Shown piece by piece: positions 6,852 through 33,324 of a stretch of DNA of 33,324 bases (positions are counted from its first letter, which is position 1; each line of letters opens with the position of its first letter). The position numbers and the translations under genes were made by a program. The notes below the pieces were generated by a model that had not been told where the DNA came from, did no database searches, and worked only from the letters and a program-made list of their open reading frames with translations. Origin of the DNA: a virus (Duplodnaviria; Heunggongvirae; Uroviricota; Caudoviricetes); the IMG/VR virus record IMGVR_UViG_2778261568_000008, positions 1 to 33,324 of that record. One strand, written 5' to 3'.

Positions 6852-7237
6852 CAATGGATTATTCACAGTTAAGTGATTTTGAAATTAACGTGGCGGTATT
6901 CGAAGCCATTCATAACGGATCACCGGATTACAAAGAAGGTGAGAATGGCGCGATGGTGTTTATCTCATTTGAGGGAGACATTGTAAACGGAGACGCAGTT
7001 GAAGTAGAGGTTGAGCGCGAATCCTTTAACCCATGCGCAAACCCAGCAGACGCATGGCCGATTATCACTGAAAACAACATCAGCATAATTTTAGACAATC
7101 CCTCAATGCCGTGCGCTACAGACAACGCAAGGGACTTGTTTGATGATGCCGGACCGAATGTTGGTGTCGCATATGACAATCCACTCCGTGCCGCCATGAT
7201 TGTCTTTCTCATGATGCAGGACGCCAATAATGCTTAG
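6848..7237 (+). CDS. Hypothetical acidic nin-region protein (129 aa)
   Basis: ATG at 6848 overlaps the ninE stop; coding-like composition. Confidence 0.55.
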
Positions 7238-7406
7238 CCCATCCCAATCCCTTCAATACCAGAAAGAAAGCGTCGAGCGAGCTTTAACGTGCGCTAACTG
7301 CGGTCAGAATCTGCATGTGCTGGAAGTTCATGTGTGTGAGCACTGCTGCGCAGAACTGATGAGCGATCCGAATAGCTCAATGTACGAGGAAGAAGACGAT
7401 GAATGA
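7230..7406 (+). CDS. ninF: NinF-like protein (58 aa, Cys-rich)
   Basis: KESVERALTCANCGQNLHVLEVHVCEHCCAELMSDPNSS resembles lambda NinF. Not in the ORF track. Confidence 0.7.
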   Translation: MLSPSQSLQYQKESVERALTCANCGQNLHVLEVHVCEHCCAELMSDPNSSMYEEEDDE

Positions 7407-8121
7407 GTTAATAAATGGCAACGCCATCAAAATGACAAGCATTGAAATCGCTGAGTTGGTGGGAAGTCGTCATGACAAGGTGAAACAATCTATTGAACGA
7501 CTGGCGGCTCGAGGTGTGATCCGAAATCCCCCAATGGTGGTTTTCTAAAAAATCAATAACTTAGGATTACTTCGTGGCGTAGAGGCTTACGTTTTTGAGG
7601 GCGAACAAGGTAAGCGAGACAGTATTGTCGTTGTAGCCCAGTTGTCGCCGGAATTCACCGCTCGTCTTGTTGATCGTTGGCGAGAGCTTGAAGAAACTAC
7701 GGTTAATATCCCCAAAACGCTACCGGAAGCGTTGCGCCTTGCTGCTGATCTTGCTGAGAAGAAAATGCAACTGGAAAACCAGCTCGCAATTGCCGCACCT
7801 AAAGTTGAGTTTGCCGATCGCGTTGGCGAGGCCAGCGGAATTTTGATTGGAAACTTTGCAAAGGTTGTTGGAATTGGTCCAAACAAACTGTTTGCGTGGA
7901 TGCGCGATCACAAAATCCTTATTGCTTCAGGTTCCCGGCGCAATGTGCCAATGCAGGAATATATGGATCGCGGCTATTTCACAGTGAAAGAAACAGCGGT
8001 CAACACAAATCACGGAATACAGATATCGTTCACCACAAAAATCACCGGGCGTGGTCAACAGTGGCTGACCAGAAAGCTGCTCGATAACGGAATGCTGAAA
8101 GTAACAGGGGAGGCCGCTTAA
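7399..8121 (+). pseudogene. Phage antirepressor (Rha-like N-terminus plus KilAC C-terminus) interrupted by an in-frame TAA at 7546-7548
   Basis: One frame runs 7399-8121 with a single stop after codon 49; the sequence after the stop (KINNLGLLRGVEAYVFEGEQGK...) continues without a start codon into the track ORF at 7642. Confidence 0.6.
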
Positions 8122-8411
8122 TGGCTAATCTACGCAAAGAAGCACGCGGCAGAGAATGCCAGGTACGTATTTACGGCGTATGCAATGGTAATCCTGAAAC
8201 TACAGTTCTGGCACATTACCGGATGGCTGGAATTTGTGGAACGGGGATGAAGCCTGACGACCTGATCGGCGCATGGGCTTGTAGCGCGTGTCACGATGAA
8301 ATCGACCGACGCACCCATAACCTCGACAACAAAGACGCCAGACTTTACCACCTCGAAGGCGTGATCAGGACGCAGGCGATACTGCTGAAGGAGGGGAAGA
8401 TTAAGTCATGA
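8121..8411 (+). CDS. YbcO-like prophage protein (putative nuclease, 96 aa)
   Basis: Cys/His-rich sequence resembling DLP12 YbcO; GGGGAGG RBS. Confidence 0.7.
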   Translation: MANLRKEARGRECQVRIYGVCNGNPETTVLAHYRMAGICGTGMKPDDLIGAWACSACHDEIDRRTHNLDNKDARLYHLEGVIRTQAILLKEGKIKS

Positions 8412-8770
8412 ACGAATATCAGTTTGTGCTTCCATACCCGCCGTCGGTGAATACCTACTGGCGAAGACGGGGAAGCCAATACTACATCAGCGATAAAGGC
8501 CAGAAATACCGAAAAGACGTTCAGCAAATCATCCGCCAACTTAAGTTAGACATTTTCACCAAATCACGACTCCGCATCAAAGTCATCGCAGACGTTCCAG
8601 ACTCCCGCCGCCGCGACCTCGACAACATCCTGAAAGGTTTACTCGACTCTCTTATCCACGCCGGATTTGCGGAAGACGACGAGCAATTCGATGACATTCG
8701 CGTAATTCGTGGCGTGAAAGTACCAGGCGGAAGGCTTGGAATAAAAATCACCGAACTGGAGAACGTATGA
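8408..8770 (+). CDS. rusA: RusA-family Holliday junction resolvase
   Basis: Conserved DRRRRDLDN catalytic motif and RusA-like length; start overlaps the previous stop. Confidence 0.9.
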   Translation: MNEYQFVLPYPPSVNTYWRRRGSQYYISDKGQKYRKDVQQIIRQLKLDIFTKSRLRIKVIADVPDSRRRDLDNILKGLLDSLIHAGFAEDDEQFDDIRVIRGVKVPGGRLGIKITELENV

Positions 8771-8955
8771 ACGCCACAATTCAAACGATACCAGAGCTTC
8801 TTATCCAGACACGAGGCAATCAGACCGAAGTGGCGAGGATGCTTTCCTGCGCAAGAGGAACGGTGCTCAAGTACAACCGAGACAGCAAAGGCGAACGTCA
8901 CGTAATAGTTAACGGCGTCCTGATGGTCAAACAGGGCAAGAGGGGAAGACGATGA
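8767..8955 (+). CDS. ninH: NinH-like protein
   Basis: GNQTEVARMLSCARGTVLKY resembles lambda NinH. Confidence 0.75.
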   Translation: MNATIQTIPELLIQTRGNQTEVARMLSCARGTVLKYNRDSKGERHVIVNGVLMVKQGKRGRR

Positions 8956-9575
8956 GACTCGAAAGCGTAGCTAAATTTCATTCGCCAAAAAGCCCGATGA
9001 TGAGCGACTCACCACGGGCTACGGCTTCTGACTCTCTTTCCGGTACTGATGTGATGGCTGCTATGGGGATGGCGCAATCACAAGCCGGATTTGGAATGGC
9101 TGCGTTCTGTGGTAAGCACGAACTCAGCCAGAATGACAAACAAAAAGCCATCAACTATCTGATGCAATTTGCACACAAGGTATCGGGGAAATACCGTGGC
9201 GTTGCAAAGCTTGAAGGAAATACTAAGGCAAAGGTACTGCAAGTGCTCGCAACATTCGCTTATGCGGATTATTGCCGTAGTGCCGCGACGCCGGGCGCAA
9301 GATGCAGAGATTGCCACGGTACAGGTCGGGCGGTTGATATTGCCAAAACAGAGCAGTGGGGGAGAGTTGTTGAGAAAGAATGCGGAAGATGCAAAGGTGT
9401 CGGCTATTCAAGAATGCCAGCAAGCGCCGCATATCGCGCTGTGACGATGCTAATCCCAAACCTTACCCAACCCACCTGGTCACGCACTGTTAAGCCGCTG
9501 TATGACGCTCTGGTGGTGCAATGCCACAAGGAAGAGTCAATCGCAGACAACATTTTGAACGCGGTCACACGTTAG
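8952..9575 (+). CDS. Q: Late-gene antiterminator Q (lambda type)
   Basis: 207 aa with a Cys-rich zinc-binding segment (CRDCHGTG ... CGRCKG); matches my recollection of lambda Q nearly residue for residue. Confidence 0.9.
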   Translation: MRLESVAKFHSPKSPMMSDSPRATASDSLSGTDVMAAMGMAQSQAGFGMAAFCGKHELSQNDKQKAINYLMQFAHKVSGKYRGVAKLEGNTKAKVLQVLATFAYADYCRSAATPGARCRDCHGTGRAVDIAKTEQWGRVVEKECGRCKGVGYSRMPASAAYRAVTMLIPNLTQPTWSRTVKPLYDALVVQCHKEESIADNILNAVTR

Positions 9576-9617
9576 CAGCATGATTGCCACGGATGGCAAC
9601 ATATTAACGGCATAATA

Positions 9618-9646
9618 TTGACTTTTTGAATAAAGTTGGGTAAATT
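9618..9646 (+). promoter_or_regulatory. Late promoter PR' (-35 TTGACT 9618-9623, -10 TAAATT 9641-9646)
   Basis: 17-bp spacer, immediately downstream of Q; same hexamers as lambda PR' as I recall them. Confidence 0.6.
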
Positions 9647-9680
9647 TGACTCAACGATGGATAAATGCACTCGTTAAATA

Positions 9681-9710
9681 AAGCCCTGAGTTAATAGCTC
9701 GGGGCTTTTT
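9681..9710 (+). terminator. Intrinsic terminator about 30-55 nt downstream of the PR' start (candidate tR')
   Basis: 10-bp stem with one G-U pair (AAGCCCTGAG / CTCGGGGCTT), 7-nt loop, then TTTTT. Confidence 0.55.
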
Positions 9711-10131
9711 GCGTTACAATCACAAAAGGAAGAGCGTTAGGTGAATCGGCGATACTGCCCCACAAGCCCGTTAATCGATAGAGGTAGACTAGCGCTCTTC
9801 CTTTTGTGCTGAATTAAGCGAATGCCGGAAGCAGAACCGGATCACCAAATGCGTACAGGCGTCATCGCCGCCCAGCAACAGCATAACCCAAACTGAGCCG
9901 TAGCCACTGGTTATCCTGAACTCATCAGTGATAGTTATGCTGCGGCCTTCTACATATGACCTTCGTGAAAGCGGATGGCAAGAGGCTGCGCTAACAACCT
10001 CCTGCCGTTTTGCCCGTGCATATCGGTCACGAACAAATCTGATTACTAAACACAGTAGCCTGGATTTGTTCTATCAGTAATCGACCTTATTCCTAATTAA
10101 ATAGAGCAAATCCCCTTATTGGGGGTAAGAC

Positions 10132-10455
10132 ATGAAGATGCCAGAAAAACATGACCTGTTAGCCGCCATTCTCGCGGCAAAGGAACAAGGCATCGGGGCA
10201 ATCCTTGCGTTTGCAATGGCGTACCTTCGCGGCAGATATAATGGCGGTGCGTTTACAAAAACAGTAATCGACGCAACGATGTGCGCCATTATCGCCTGGT
10301 TCATTCGTGACCTTCTCGACTTCGCCGGACTAAGTAGCAATCTCGCTTATATAACGAGCGTGTTCATCGGCTACATCGGTACTGACTCGATTGGTTCGCT
10401 TATCAAACGCTTCGCTGCTAAAAAAGCCGGAGTAGAAGATGGTGGAAATCAATAA
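10132..10455 (+). CDS. S: Class I holin S (dual-start Met1-Lys2-Met3)
   Basis: Lambda S-like sequence with three TM segments and MKM dual-start motif. Confidence 0.95.
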
Positions 10456-10915
10456 TCAACGTAAGGCGTTCCTCGATATGCTGGCATGGTCAGAGGGAAC
10501 TGATAACGGACGTCAGAAAACCAGAAATCATGGTTATGACGTCATTGTAGGAGGAGAGCTATTCACTGATTACTCCGATCACCCTCGCAAACTTGTCACG
10601 CTAAACCCCAAACTCAAATCAACAGCCGCCGGACGCTACCAGCTTCTTTCCCGTTGGTGGGATGCCTACCGCAAGCAGCTTGGCCTGAAAGACTTCTCTC
10701 CCAAAAGCCAGGACGCTGTGGCACTGCAGCAGATTAAGGAGCGTGGCGCTTTACCGATGATTGATCGCGGTGATATCCGTCAGGCTATCGATCGTTGCAG
10801 CAATATCTGGGCTTCACTTCCGGGGGCTGGTTATGGTCAGTTCGAGCATAAGGCTGACAGCCTGATTGCAAAATTCAAAGAAGCGGGTGGAACGGTCAGA
10901 GAGATTGAGGTATGA
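10439..10915 (+). CDS. R: Endolysin R (lytic transglycosylase)
   Basis: Lambda R-like sequence over the full length; start overlaps the end of S. Confidence 0.95.
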
Positions 10916-11379
10916 GCAGAGTAACCGCGATTATCTCCGCTCTGGTTATCTGTATCATCGTCTGCCTGTCATGGGCTGTTAATCATTACCGTGATAACGC
11001 CATTACCTACAAAGCCCAGCGCGACAAAAATGCCAGAGAACTGAAGCTGGCGAACGCGGCAATTACTGACATGCAGATGCGTCAGCGTGATGTTGCTGCG
11101 CTCGATGCAAAATACACGAAGGAGTTAGCTGATGCGAAAGCTGAAAATGATGCTCTTCTGCGGAAGCTTGATAATGGTGGTCGGGTGCTCGTCAAAGGAA
11201 AATGCCCTGTGCCATCCTCAGCCGAAACCTCCAGCGCCTCCGGCATGGGCAATGATGCCACCGTCGAACTCTCTCCAGTTGCTGGACGAAACGTTCTCGG
11301 TATCCGGGACGGAATCATCAGCGACCAAACAGCACTGAGAACGCTTCAGGAATACATCAGGACGCAATGCCTTCGATGA
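10912..11379 (+). CDS. Rz: Spanin inner-membrane subunit Rz
   Basis: N-terminal TM segment and coiled coil; the N-terminal half matches lambda Rz, the C-terminal half diverges. Confidence 0.9.
11132..11338 (+). CDS. Rz1: Spanin outer-membrane lipoprotein Rz1, embedded in the +1 frame of Rz
   Basis: Lipobox VVGC after a signal sequence and a proline-rich mature region ([11 protein letters not shown]); entirely inside Rz. Confidence 0.75.
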
Positions 11380-12228: not shown

Positions 12229-12969
12229 ATGCATCAAACTTTAGCCAACGCAACGTTTCAGGTCATTGCAGGTGATTCTCGTGGTAGTGGGTTCAGCTTC
12301 ATGCGAGAAGATCTGGTCGTAACCAATTTGCATGTTGTCGCCACCTGCTGTGACTTGCAGAACCTGCGTCAAATTAATCATGTCATCCTTCAAACTGAAG
12401 TTAATGAGCATATCGAAGCTCAAATATTGCACATTGATGGTGACAACGACTTTGCGATTATGCGGTTGCAATCACAGCTTCCTGCCGGGAGAACAGTCCT
12501 TCAACCATCTGCTGGGTTTGCTCCATCCAGGGGCAGAAAAGTAATTTTTGCAGGATACCCGCATGGGATACCTCTGTTACTAACAAGTGAGGCAATTATT
12601 TCAGCACCGATGGAGCATGGCCGATTTACGCTTGATGGAATGGTTAATGGGGGGAACTCAGGAGGACCTATTATTGATCGAGATTCGGGAGAGTTAGTAG
12701 GTATCGTCACCCAGCGTAGATATATAATGGGCGATCAGGCTGATGCTTTCAGCCAAGAAATAGCCCAACTGCGACAATATCTTTCTTCAGCAAGTCAGCA
12801 TGGAAGTGTTGAGATCATGGGTGTTAATTTCGGGCAAATGGCGGACATGTTTGGTAGATCGCTACAGATTGTTTCGGACATGATGTCGCAGAATGCTAAC
12901 TCCGGAATTGGTATTGGATTTTCAATCCAGCCCATCGTTGATGTGATCACATCTTTCCCTACGAAATAA
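12229..12969 (+). CDS. Trypsin-like (chymotrypsin-fold) serine protease, no signal peptide
   Basis: Catalytic triad context: His in TNLHVVATC, Asp in DFAIMRL, Ser in GGNSGGPIID; GGAG RBS; AT-rich surroundings. Confidence 0.85.
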   Translation: MHQTLANATFQVIAGDSRGSGFSFMREDLVVTNLHVVATCCDLQNLRQINHVILQTEVNEHIEAQILHIDGDNDFAIMRLQSQLPAGRTVLQPSAGFAPSRGRKVIFAGYPHGIPLLLTSEAIISAPMEHGRFTLDGMVNGGNSGGPIIDRDSGELVGIVTQRRYIMGDQADAFSQEIAQLRQYLSSASQHGSVEIMGVNFGQMADMFGRSLQIVSDMMSQNANSGIGIGFSIQPIVDVITSFPTK

Positions 12970-29173: not shown

Positions 29174-29176
29174 AGT

Positions 29177-29246
29177 TGAAGCCCCAACTGCGGGAACAGT
29201 CAGGGCTTCGGTTGTCAGTAAATCCGTGGAGAAAAACCAACATGAA
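29177..29246 (-). ncRNA. Possible sar-type antisense RNA across the arc-ant junction
   Basis: In P22 a short antisense RNA covers the ant RBS; the same intercistronic arrangement and a GAAGCCC / GGGCTTC inverted repeat (29178-29209) are present. Boundaries are approximate. Confidence 0.3.
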
Positions 29247-30144
29247 TAGTATAGCAATTTTAGAAGCAGTGAACACCTCTTACGTACCATTCAACGGTCA
29301 GCAAATTATCACCGCCATGGCTGCCGGAGTTGCATACGTTGCGATGAAGCCAATCGTTGAAAACCTTGGAATGAGTTGGGGTACTCAGCAACAAAAACTT
29401 ATGAAACAACTAGATAAGTTCAACTGTATTCATATGAATATGGTTGCCGCTGATGGGAAGCTTCGTAAGCTACTCTGCCTTCCTTTGAAGAAGTTAAATG
29501 GATGGCTGTTCAGCATCAACCCTGAGAAAGTTCGAGCTGACATCCGCGATAAACTGATTCAGTACCAGGAAGAATGCTTTACTGTACTGCATGACTACTG
29601 GACAAAGGGAAAGGCAGAAAATGCACGTAAGAAAACATCTGTTGATGACAGGACTCCGCTTCGTGATGCTGTAAATATGCTAGTCAGCAAAAAGCATCTA
29701 ATGTACCCAGAAGCTTATGCAATGATTCATCAGCGTTTCAATGTGGAAAGTATTGAAGAGCTTGATGCATCTCAGATACCGCAAGCCGTAGAGTACATCC
29801 ACAGGGTAGTGCTTGAAGGTGAGTTCATCGGCAAACAAGAGAAGAAAACCAACGAGCTTTCTGCAAAAGAAGCAAACAGCCTTGTATGGCTATGGGATTA
29901 TGCCAACCGCTCACAGGCATTATTCCGCGAACTGTATCCGGCGCTGAAACAAATTCAATCGAACTATTCCGGCAGATGTCATGACTGCGGTTATGAGTTC
30001 TCCCGTATTATCGATATAGCGAGAGACGTTTTAATCAATCACTCACGAGATGTTGATATCAATGAGCCAGACGGACCAACGAATCTTTCCGCATGGATGA
30101 GACTTAAGAATAAAGAATTACCTCCTTCAGTACATAACTACTGA
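29242..30144 (+). CDS. ant: Antirepressor Ant (P22 type)
   Basis: 300 aa matching my recollection of P22 Ant; GGAG RBS before the ATG at 29242. Confidence 0.9.
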
Positions 30145-30162
30145 CAGATAACCAACGCAACG

Positions 30163-30187
30163 ACCCAGCTTCGGCTGGGTTTTTTTA
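30163..30187 (+). terminator. Rho-independent terminator after ant
   Basis: ACCCAGC-TTCG-GCTGGGT hairpin followed by TTTTTTT. Confidence 0.65.
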
Positions 30188-30243
30188 TGCCCAAAATTCA
30201 CCGTAGCTACGCTGCGGCGATTCCTTGTATCTGGAGCAATGAA

Positions 30244-31680
30244 ATGTCAGATATCACCGCAAATGTTGTGGTAAGCATGCCTTCGCAACTCTTCACTATG
30301 GCTCGTTCTTTTAAAGCCGTAGCCAATGGCAAAATTTATATCGGTAAAATTGACACTGACCCAGTAAATCCTGAAAACCAGATTCAGGTTTATGTGGAGA
30401 ATGAAGACGGTTCTCACATTCCTGTTTCTCAACCAATCATCATTAACGCCGCTGGTTACCCTGTATATAACGGACAGATTGCCAAGTTCGTAACTGTGCA
30501 AGGCCATTCTATGGCTGTTTATGATGCGTATGGTACACAGCAGTTCTATTTTCCGAATGTGCTGAAGTATGACCCGGATCAGTTAAGAGTAGTTTTGACT
30601 GGACAGTCTGGTGATGGACTTAATAATTTTTATGCTGGCTCAGGATGGACTGGTTCAGATGCAGCTGGTGACAATATTTATAACAATGAAACTATCATAT
30701 ATAAAAATGCTACACGACAGAGATTCTCCATACCAGAAACACCAATTCCAGATCCCATTATTTGGCTGGAAAAAATTAGTTCTGCAACTAGGGATGACGG
30801 CATCAAACGATGGGATCAGGGGGTAATTTATAACTCTTTGCGCAAGGTGTCAGGAAGTGCATATACATGCACAACTACAAGTGTTGCTAAGCATGAGGGA
30901 GGGAATGGGCATTCAATTGGTCACCACATGCGTGGAGAATCAAGAAATCCGCAAGCCGAAACATGGGGGGGGTGGTCATATGGTGCAGTATTAGGAGATG
31001 CAGTGCAGAATGGAGCGATTAGCACTATTGCACATGAATTTAATCTGAATAATCGAGGTCCCGATAAAGGATGGATGGAGAATGCACAGCAAGGATCTGT
31101 AAGAGGGTTGGTATGTGTAACTCAGGATAAAAGCAATCCAGTAACACAGATGATTACCATCGGAAGAGGGAGTGAAGCTCCAAATGGTTATATCTGGACA
31201 GGAATGTTGTTTAGAGGTAATTCTATTTCCACTCCAACAGAGGAACTAACCGAGGTAGGTAATGGCGAATACATCAGACTTGAGGGATCTCTATCATCTA
31301 GAGCTGCAAACGGCATTAGATTTAGAACAAATTATTTTAGGAGTGGAATTTCATTTTCTGAAGCTGGATTTTCAAACAACTGCGCAATTTTGATGGGCGA
31401 CAATCAACGAATTACGGTAGGAACGGGCCCGGCAAATACAACACATTTGAGTTTCAACAGGGCTGAGAACTGGGCTAACTTCAACAACTTAAGAATACGA
31501 CTTAATGGCAATCAAGTTATTTCAGAGAGGAGGACGGGATGGGGATCGCCAACCGGCACCGTATCCCGAGCAGCATTTAACTCTGGAACAATAACTCACG
31601 AAGATTTAGCAAAGGTAGTTGCAGCATTAATTCAGGACTTACATGCTTCGACCGGGCATGGATTAATTGGTTTAACTTAA
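30244..31680 (+). CDS. Tailspike protein: P22 gp9-type N-terminal head-binding domain plus a different C-terminal receptor-binding domain
   Basis: N-terminal 110 aa ([11 protein letters not shown] ... VLKYDPDQ) resemble the P22 tailspike head-binding domain; the remaining 370 aa do not resemble the P22 beta-helix. Confidence 0.85.
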
Positions 31681-32115: not shown

Positions 32116-32147
32116 AAAAAAGGCGGGATTTCCCGCCTTATTTTATT
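32116..32147. terminator. Bidirectional terminator between the small ORFs and the convergent glycosyltransferase gene
   Basis: GGCGGGA-TT-TCCCGCC hairpin flanked by A-rich and T-rich runs on both sides. Confidence 0.6.
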
Positions 32148-33324
32148 GGAAGTATGACTCTGTTTTCTTTCTGTTGAGTTTTGAACCAGTGCCTTTATAT
32201 CCGGCAGTAACATGAAATTCCCACTCGTTACGCTGCAATGCATCTTTGGTTAATCCGTAGAATCTCACTAAATATCCGCAGTCCAGATTGTAATCTGGGA
32301 ACTTCGCTACAACATCTGAGCGCTGAATTTTTTCCTCCAGAAAACCGGGCAGGATCTCCTGTCCTATGCGTAAGTTAAAGAACTGCTGCTCAACGCCCTC
32401 AGTGGGCACGCACCATCCTGTGAAAATGCATGACCCGTCATCTTCTCTCACCCTGTCTACGTAACCATGCCACGTTATTCTACTTTCATCGCGCTCAACC
32501 GTTAATGCTTGCTCCAGATTCAGCCCCATACCCTTCAGGTATTCATAAACTCCATCCATAATAAAGAACTTAGACGGGTTGATAGATTTCGAAGCTGCAT
32601 GCATATCGTAATATTCAGTCTGAGTCATCAGGAACTTTTTGACTAAATGATGTCTCGCCCCTTTGAATGCCTTCAGAGCCTCAATATCATTGACGTCAAC
32701 AAGACCCTCCAGTTTATTCCTGGCGCTGGCGATATAGTCATCATAGTTCTTATGGTGGAAGTGAAGATAAATGATATCCGTATCAACTTGCTGGCCTGAC
32801 TCAACCTCACCGCGATGGAAGCCATTACCCAGCGCAGTGATTCTTGATTTAGGGAAGAACACTTTCTCAGGCTTAGGGCTTAACGCAAATTCTTTTGGGT
32901 TAAGTGGATGGTTGCCATATGTATATTTAATTTTAAATGTGGCGTCGGTATCTATATATTTTGATAATTCATTCAACACATCATTTTTAGACAGCGACAC
33001 CTTACCCTTTGAAAATTCAACGCCGACAAACTCATCACAATCAAGTGGCATCATAAAATCATAGCCATGAGAATTCTTTAATTCTTCGTATTTGTCTACG
33101 AAGTAGATATGTCTGGTATTGAAATCATCAAAGGTGCTTCTGTCATAAACGACATTCATCCCTTTTCCCGAATATTCCTTCAGAATGTTAAGGCATCGCT
33201 CATCTGCTGACCCGTTATCGTAGACGTATAAATTTTCAAGGCCAAAAAGCTCAGCATGATGCAGTATCCATGGCTCAAGAAGCCGGTACTCATCCTTTTG
33301 CATCATCAAAACAGCAACTTTCAT
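32143..33324 (-). CDS. Family-2 (GT-A fold) glycosyltransferase, 393 aa
   Basis: VYDNGSAD and DCDEF (DxD) motifs; no obvious TM segments; the start codon is the last three bases of the window, so the promoter lies outside. Confidence 0.85.
   Translation of the reverse strand: MKVAVLMMQKDEYRLLEPWILHHAELFGLENLYVYDNGSADERCLNILKEYSGKGMNVVYDRSTFDDFNTRHIYFVDKYEELKNSHGYDFMMPLDCDEFVGVEFSKGKVSLSKNDVLNELSKYIDTDATFKIKYTYGNHPLNPKEFALSPKPEKVFFPKSRITALGNGFHRGEVESGQQVDTDIIYLHFHHKNYDDYIASARNKLEGLVDVNDIEALKAFKGARHHLVKKFLMTQTEYYDMHAASKSINPSKFFIMDGVYEYLKGMGLNLEQALTVERDESRITWHGYVDRVREDDGSCIFTGWCVPTEGVEQQFFNLRIGQEILPGFLEEKIQRSDVVAKFPDYNLDCGYLVRFYGLTKDALQRNEWEFHVTAGYKGTGSKLNRKKTESYFQ

Follow-up and report, generated by a model that had tools for sequence, protein, structure and literature searches.

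A premature stop codon in the nin-region gene roi of a P22-like prophage

Introduction

The window analysed here, a single stretch of DNA of 33,324 nucleotides, carries a P22-like prophage of the HK620/CUS-3/phiv205-1 type in which the nin-region gene roi is broken at codon 50 by a TAA. The lesion is very probably a recent, lineage-specific nonsense mutation in an accessory gene, and an instance of the ordinary neutral decay of a P22-like prophage gene. The sections below examine the identity of the gene, the nature of the mutation, its occurrence beside many other broken copies of roi in related prophages, and its likely consequences. The features concerned are collected in Table 1.

The genes of the prophage are arranged as cI-cro-cII-O-P, ninB-ninE-ninX-ninF-roi-ybcO-rusA-ninH-Q, and then the late genes, among them those for lysis, terminase and portal. 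Gene lengths and domains elsewhere on the contig are ordinary. In HK620 and in PGAP-annotated relatives, roi takes the same position in the PR operon, between ninF and ybcO/ninG-rusA-ninH-Q. The host is presumably Escherichia coli, since all close relatives come from this species. The source contig begins 152 nt before the window, within the early-left region (in a ral-like gene), and the int/xis side lies off the contig.

Table 1. Features of the window that are discussed in the text.
Feature	Position	Strand	Remarks
ninF	7230..7406	+	PF05810 NinF gene call; stop overlaps roi start (ATGAATGA)
roi pseudogene, full 241-codon frame	7399..8121	+	Rha-like HTH N-terminal and KilAC/ANT C-terminal domain; interrupted at codon 50
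Residual 49-aa ORF	7399..7548	+	ATG start; keeps first part of HTH domain only
Premature TAA (codon 50)	7546..7548	+	G>T at 7546; ancestral GAA (Glu), E50*
A6 homopolymer	7547..7552	+	directly 3' of mutated base; longest run in roi; +1/+2 (A7, A8) hotspot in relatives
Downstream in-frame remnant with KilAC	7642..8121	+	called from TTG 7642 (159 aa) or ATG 7765 (118 aa)
YbcO/DUF1364 gene	8121..8411	+	PF07102 call; ATG overlaps roi stop (TAATG)
Intact immI-type Ant	29176..30144	+	P22_AR_N 152 bits and P22_AR_C 96 bits; phrog_245 'anti-repressor Ant' 318 bits
Tailspike	30187-31680		P22-type head-binding domain

A 246-aa ORF on the plus strand (12229-12969), with the lysis cassette on one side and the terminase genes on the other, contains a Trypsin_2 serine protease domain (PF13365) and may be a moron. 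Downstream of the tailspike gene, a 393-aa family-2 glycosyltransferase is encoded on the minus strand (32143-33324), the window ending exactly at its start codon; this may be an O-antigen-modifying cargo gene.

Identity of the interrupted gene

An earlier note on this DNA had described a continuous frame with a Rha-like N-terminus and a KilAC-type C-terminus, inactivated by one in-frame stop. Translation of 7399-8121 bears this out: the frame extends over 241 codons, with the TAA at codon 50 as its one internal stop. The context of the stop, TTCTAAAAAATC, is A-rich as the note had claimed, and the ORF listing agrees with it that no in-frame ATG, GTG or TTG intervenes between the TAA and the TTG at 7642. 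Further in-frame starts are found at 7732 (TTG), at 7765 (ATG) and beyond.

When the stop is masked, the C-terminal domain is recognised clearly (Pfam ANT/KilAC, PF03374, residues 126-228, 113.3 bits against a gathering cutoff of 25.3). The N-terminal domain matches Phage_pRha (PF09669) over residues 12-99 and profile positions 1-91, with 26.8 bits against a cutoff of 29.9 and E=8e-6; the NCBI label on N-terminal fragments of close relatives is 'Rha family transcriptional regulator'. The repaired protein falls into PHROG phrog_63, 'anti-repressor Ant', with 318 bits, and has 0 matches among the NCBIfam models. A sequence search of the PDB with the repaired protein returned chance-level matches only (ribosomal protein L5, E=0.14), and no solved relative was found by sequence.

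The frame aligns with annotated intact genes of 240 aa without a gap over all 723 nt, at 92-99.6% identity, so it is not a chance reading frame. Full-length matches to the 723 nt occur in 219 phage records and in 988 complete-genome E. coli records, where they are annotated as 'Roi', 'DNA-binding protein Roi', 'anti-repressor Ant' or 'phage antirepressor KilAC domain-containing protein', and always lie directly 3' of ninF. Complete E. coli genomes hold roughly 1,270 copies of roi in all, spread over 985 genomes. Identity is 92.4% at the nucleotide level to roi of HK620 (100% coverage), 93.5% to HK629 Roi, and 99.6% to the intact gene for WP_063102870.1 in strain KCJ3K291. By position and full-length similarity, 7399-8121 is thus assigned to the lambdoid nin-region gene roi. 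A roi gene is expected to have an uninterrupted frame of about 240 codons, which the window copy lacks owing to the TAA at codon 50; it is therefore a pseudogene of the roi family rather than a functional member.

Function of Roi

The earlier note had called this gene a dead antirepressor. The first half of that description holds, in that the gene is inactivated by a single TAA and is otherwise undecayed, but 'antirepressor' is an annotation label only. It stems from PGAP and PHROG annotation transfer through the KilAC domain alone; in Pfam searches of the roi frame, P22_AR_N and P22_AR_C were both absent. We know of no documented antirepressor or repressor-binding activity for Roi. The protein reportedly binds a site inside its own gene, adjoining an IHF site, and roi missense mutants are said to grow on IHF-deficient hosts. 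Roi is known as a DNA-binding protein (Clerget & Boccard 1996, in the reference lists of PMC3430580 and PMC4587872), and a title cited in the same two papers has HK022 Roi inhibiting lytic growth in IHF mutants.

The prophage does carry a P22-type antirepressor gene, in immI, and this one is intact as the note had stated: its ORF is uninterrupted and retains both P22_AR domains. The ORF is given in Table 1 from the first possible start, a TTG, and the true start probably lies about 20 codons downstream.

Nature of the mutation

Comparison with intact homologues, which the earlier note had proposed as a check, identifies the original codon as GAA (Glu) in all intact relatives examined. In the alignment these are the genes of KCJ3K291, CUPS SST 5/1, LR-64-1 and HK620, the first two of which both encode WP_063102870.1. 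Besides the G>T substitution, the window differs from the KCJ3K291 gene at two nucleotides only (gene nt 375 and 717), and both differences are synonymous. Because the closest intact allele is otherwise only two synonymous bases away, the nonsense event must be recent and without later decay.

The ancestral base is highly conserved. All 126 fetched loci with the pattern GGTTTYCNAAARAATCAATAACTTAGG, in which N marks the variable base, have G at the first base of codon 50; the control pattern with this base left free found 2 loci in genome_contigs and at least 120 in IMG/VR, every one with G. A 61-mer centred on the stop retrieved 171 complete-genome records, each exactly one mismatch away, and the exact TAA form was found in none of 5,426 complete E. 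coli genomes. Counted by allele type, for the two types tested, G occupies this base in 171/171 and in 492/492 complete-genome records. A TAA-specific pattern that allowed both allele types had no match in GTDB representative genomes or JGI metagenomes. In the HK620-type allele the A-run is itself interrupted (AAAGAA), and TAA occurs in 0/492 complete-genome and 0/38 phage records.

As to how the substitution arose, dislocation (misalignment) mutagenesis at the edge of the run was considered and rejected by sequence reasoning, as it would give G>A or an indel and not G>T. An oxidative G>T is, at a guess, the simpler origin.

Interrupted roi genes in related prophages

Broken copies of roi are found in many other E. 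coli prophages. The earlier note had singled out routine splitting of homologues at the same position, into two separately translated genes, as the finding that would refute its reading. Relatives come near to this without being routinely split: across three allele types, 45 of 772 complete-genome records (about 6%) are interrupted near codons 50-53. These splits show no sign of a designed two-gene arrangement: they are +1 frameshifts, are labelled 'frameshifted' by PGAP, and have internal starts without a Shine-Dalgarno sequence.

These copies have gained one A in the A6 run. Such A7 alleles are present in loci L129-L132, L142 and L147, in strain TB354 and in O157:H7 strain 4276; a product of the A8 (+2) type also exists (P0086), and an A5 (-1) form was absent from IMG/VR. 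The frequency of A7 depends on the allele. For the window type it is 1 of about 170 complete-genome records (TB354, 'frameshifted' according to PGAP), and for the '...LPALQVFEK' allele it is 44/109, mostly STEC and including the PGAP-'frameshifted' copy of O157:H7 strain 4276. Deposited phage genomes are almost never split; within the phage collection A7 occurs in the record of CP-1639 only. We take CP-1639 to be a cryptic prophage. In the deposited Stx2-converting phage Stx2a_WGPS6 (20422-20485), a 62-nt A7 probe aligns over 64 nt at 95.3% identity, a hint of another length variant or of an indel close to the A-run.

A wider range of lesions was found through the 118-aa product, whose start is equivalent to ATG 7765 and which is called on 103 contigs, including one of E. 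coli W. Ten loci with this product were aligned to intact roi, and lesions are given in gene coordinates; the look-up detects lesions upstream of codon 123 only, and the resulting set is biased accordingly. An additional A in the A6 run (149-154) has arisen in at least three N-terminal alleles, with 53-aa products on 204, 38, 34, 12 and fewer contigs. Other lesions are one more A in a run of five near nt 108, CGA>TGA at codon 73, a 5' deletion or replacement, and three indels near nt 311-315, in the CCCCAAAA run of ATCCCCAAAACG: +C, +A and, in E. coli W, -C. The IMG/VR loci add L057, whose frame shifts near codon 105, and L116, with CAG>TAG at codon 221. Three mosaic copies (L051, L107 and L115) consist of an 84-aa remnant with a stop, followed by a different, out-of-frame N-terminal module and the conserved KilAC domain; these look like products of domain exchange by recombination rather than of a point lesion. 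Insertional disruption is known as well, PMC4587872 describing IS629 insertions in roi of Stx2a phages.

The very substitution seen in the window, G148T (E50*), recurs at L143:1135-1857 (GCA_976943055.1, CDRICE010000001.1). This copy has an HK620-type N-terminal allele with 62 differences and lies in a different backbone; its 49-aa product is present on 10 contigs. Gene conversion was examined as the source of this second E50* and rejected, as bases specific to the allele lie 2 nt away on the 5' side of the changed nucleotide and 4 nt away on its 3' side. As these bases flank the mutated position so closely, the G148T of L143 is an independent event.

Drift or selection

The number of broken copies raises the question of whether loss of roi is favoured. 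One explanation is positive selection for inactivation of roi in lysogens, for instance if Roi holds back lytic growth or induction under limiting IHF, or if leaky expression carries a cost. Support for it comes from the many independent lesions in roi in loci whose neighbouring genes are intact, from the identical G148T in two unrelated alleles and backbones, and from the high share of A7 (44/109) in the complete-genome records of one allele. It also finds some support in the literature: PMC4587872 carries the hypothesis that disruption of roi by IS629 could raise Stx production, and the title cited above has HK022 Roi inhibiting lytic growth in IHF mutants.

Several observations weigh against selection. 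Outside the A-run, the lesion density in roi resembles that in ninE, ninF, ninH and Q: beyond the region covered by the pattern, the 120 IMG/VR loci examined have 2 point lesions in roi in about 95 loci × 723 nt, against one apiece in ninE, ninF and NinH, one or two in Q, and zero in ybcO, rusA and ninB. The per-nucleotide lesion density is thus alike in roi and its neighbours, though very few events enter this comparison. It is the longest homopolymers that hold the commonest lesions, which is what slippage would produce. The 44/109 figure comes largely from STEC genomes that are related to one another, and a single inherited event may account for it; the 118-aa look-up is biased to lesions upstream of codon 123. 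Within codons 2-122 there are 46 single substitutions that create a stop, of which 16 are G>T; given three or four independent nonsense events, it is therefore unusual, though not compelling, that two of them share a site.

Lesions in roi do cluster near codons 46-53, and the same nucleotide has been struck in a second allele; together these could be signs of a mutational hotspot, or of selection, rather than of drift alone. On balance, positive selection for loss of roi is unlikely, and the data fit the ordinary decay of a dispensable prophage gene. A more specific idea is that the stretch at codon 50 (G148 and the A6 run) serves as a recurrent point of switching-off, adaptive and, where slippage is involved, partly reversible, so as to form a crude phase switch of inducibility. 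This is somewhat less likely again. If it were true, the repeated knock-outs (G>T twice, A7 and A8) would reflect a limitation by Roi of induction or lytic growth at low IHF. Selected loss of roi would have a bearing on the control of prophage induction, including that of Stx phages; the present data fit neutral decay.

Predicted consequences for Roi and its neighbours

The likely effects of the mutation can be read from the arrangement of the genes. Judging by the overlap of stop and start codons, ninF and roi appear to be translationally coupled. Translation from the coupled ATG at 7399 would end after 49 residues, giving a product that lacks the KilAC domain altogether and more than half of the Rha-like winged-HTH domain; the fragment matches only positions 1-25 of the 91 in the Phage_pRha profile. 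The other 191 codons would not be usefully translated, as TTG 7642 and ATG 7765 have no ribosome-binding site. The calculated duplex energies with the anti-Shine-Dalgarno sequence are +0.7 kcal/mol for TTG 7642, -2.7 for ATG 7765 and -11.2 for ATG 8121, and a value of -2.7 kcal/mol is background, 44-61% of random window positions being at least as good. Since the internal starts lack a usable Shine-Dalgarno sequence, re-initiation is unlikely, and the KilAC remnant is probably untranslated. Low-level translation of this remnant, or activity of the 49-aa peptide, may still occur.

Downstream genes should be little affected. The ATG at 8121 belongs to the ybcO-like gene, which has a strong Shine-Dalgarno sequence of its own (GGGGAGG at 8108-8114, the basis of the -11.2 kcal/mol) and should therefore stay expressed without coupling to roi; rusA and Q have good sites too. 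Early transcription in lambdoid phages is antiterminated. With this and with the next gene's own Shine-Dalgarno sequence, strong polarity on Q is not expected. The window contains no tRNA gene, and hence no phage-borne suppressor. Roi function would thus be lost, ybcO, rusA, ninH and Q would be little affected, and the net outcome is likely the loss of Roi alone, through what would be the neutral decay of a gene dispensable to the resident prophage.

A very different outcome would be a functional split into two useful products, an HTH peptide of 49 aa and, made from TTG 7642 or ATG 7765, a KilAC protein standing by itself. Gene callers annotate both pieces, the 118-aa product has its 103 annotated contigs, and there are PHROGs for the N-terminal ~51 residues only (phrog_15709) and for the C-terminal ~120 only (phrog_9438). 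Against this stand the background-level energies of the internal starts and the position of the stop, which falls midway along the Pfam HTH domain. The N-terminal remnants end variously (46, 49, 53, 55, 72, 84, 116 and 148 aa), with no length favoured; PGAP calls such copies frameshifted pseudogenes, and roi is whole in deposited phage genomes. A functional split is accordingly very unlikely.

Reproducibility of the stop codon

The changed base adjoins a homopolymer, a context that is error-prone on some platforms, and the true codon might conceivably be GAA in an intact gene. The lesion is a substitution and not an error of run length, though, and assemblies made independently agree on this base, which disposes of the sequencing error that the earlier note had wished to see excluded. 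The window is identical to NKDT01000005.1 (GCA_002456805.1), starting at contig position 153, over the 17,548 bases compared. The separately assembled Logan contig SRR4261770_136, of 4,087 bp and from 16 samples, is identical over its whole length to window positions 6860-10946, and the exact 49-aa product is called on both NKDT01000005.1 and the Logan contig. An artefact of sequencing or assembly is thus highly improbable.

The features of a pseudogene produced by a nonsense mutation are all present: a sense codon in the orthologues, conservation of the rest of the frame, and a reproducible base call. Taken together, the sequences indicate that E50* is a single recent mutational event in a small clonal group. 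Programmed recoding, in which ribosomes would pass the TAA by readthrough or bypassing and so make full-length Roi, has nothing specific in its favour beyond an A-rich tract 3' of the stop and can be practically dismissed, given that all relatives have an ordinary sense codon here, that no suppressor tRNA is encoded in the window, that the TAA allele is confined to one lineage, and that UAA is the most efficient stop codon in E. coli.

Implications for annotation

The appropriate annotation for this locus is a roi pseudogene with an internal stop (E50*), in place of the two hypothetical genes of 49 and 118 or 159 aa that gene callers now make of it. The functional label should also be corrected, Roi being a DNA-binding regulator whose antirepressor role is unproven. 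The same applies more widely: small ORFs annotated as 'roi domain protein' or 'DNA-binding protein', of 46-55 aa and 118-159 aa, are remnants of broken roi genes, as are phrog_15709, phrog_9438 and the 53-aa 'roi domain protein'. Some of the 49-55-aa remnants share protein clusters at 90% identity with unrelated long proteins (vWA/MoxR ATPases, threonine synthase); such clusters look like an artefact of very short sequences, and their sizes are unusable as counts.

Beyond annotation, the finding of E50* matters little, as it concerns a pseudogene allele of a known gene. The allele itself is undescribed and unremarkable; PGAP already marks closely similar roi copies as pseudogenes, and disruption by insertion is in the literature.

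Comparison with known systems

The antirepressors proper resemble Roi in part only. The C-terminal KilAC/ANT family (PF03374) is common to Roi and to Ant1/KilA of P1, and this is the origin of the 'antirepressor' label. P22 Ant has P22_AR_N and P22_AR_C, whereas Roi is without both; the P22-type Ant of this prophage is the separate gene at 29176-30144.

The closest counterparts are the roi genes of HK022, HK620 and Stx phages, which have the same position, the same length of 240 aa and the same two-domain layout as the window gene. In HK620 the N-terminal third represents a different allele from that of the window, with most substitutions at nt 60-200; the window copy, with its TAA, cannot make Roi.

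Among interrupted genes, the nearest are the frameshifted roi copies of strain 4276 (A4C51_RS09865), strain TB354 (AC6I38_RS04520) and CP-1639, all interrupted within six bases of the window site. What is left of them is an N-terminal piece of 53 aa and the KilAC remnant that the window also has, and PGAP classes them as pseudogenes. They differ in the type of lesion, having an extra A in the A6 run, while in the window a substitution lies just 5' of an unchanged A6. The Stx2a phages PST1-3 and PST1-6 (PMC4587872) provide a parallel by another route: roi is lost from a lambdoid prophage that is otherwise apparently complete, as in the window, through an IS629 insertion in a Stx phage in their case and through a nonsense mutation in a P22-like prophage here.
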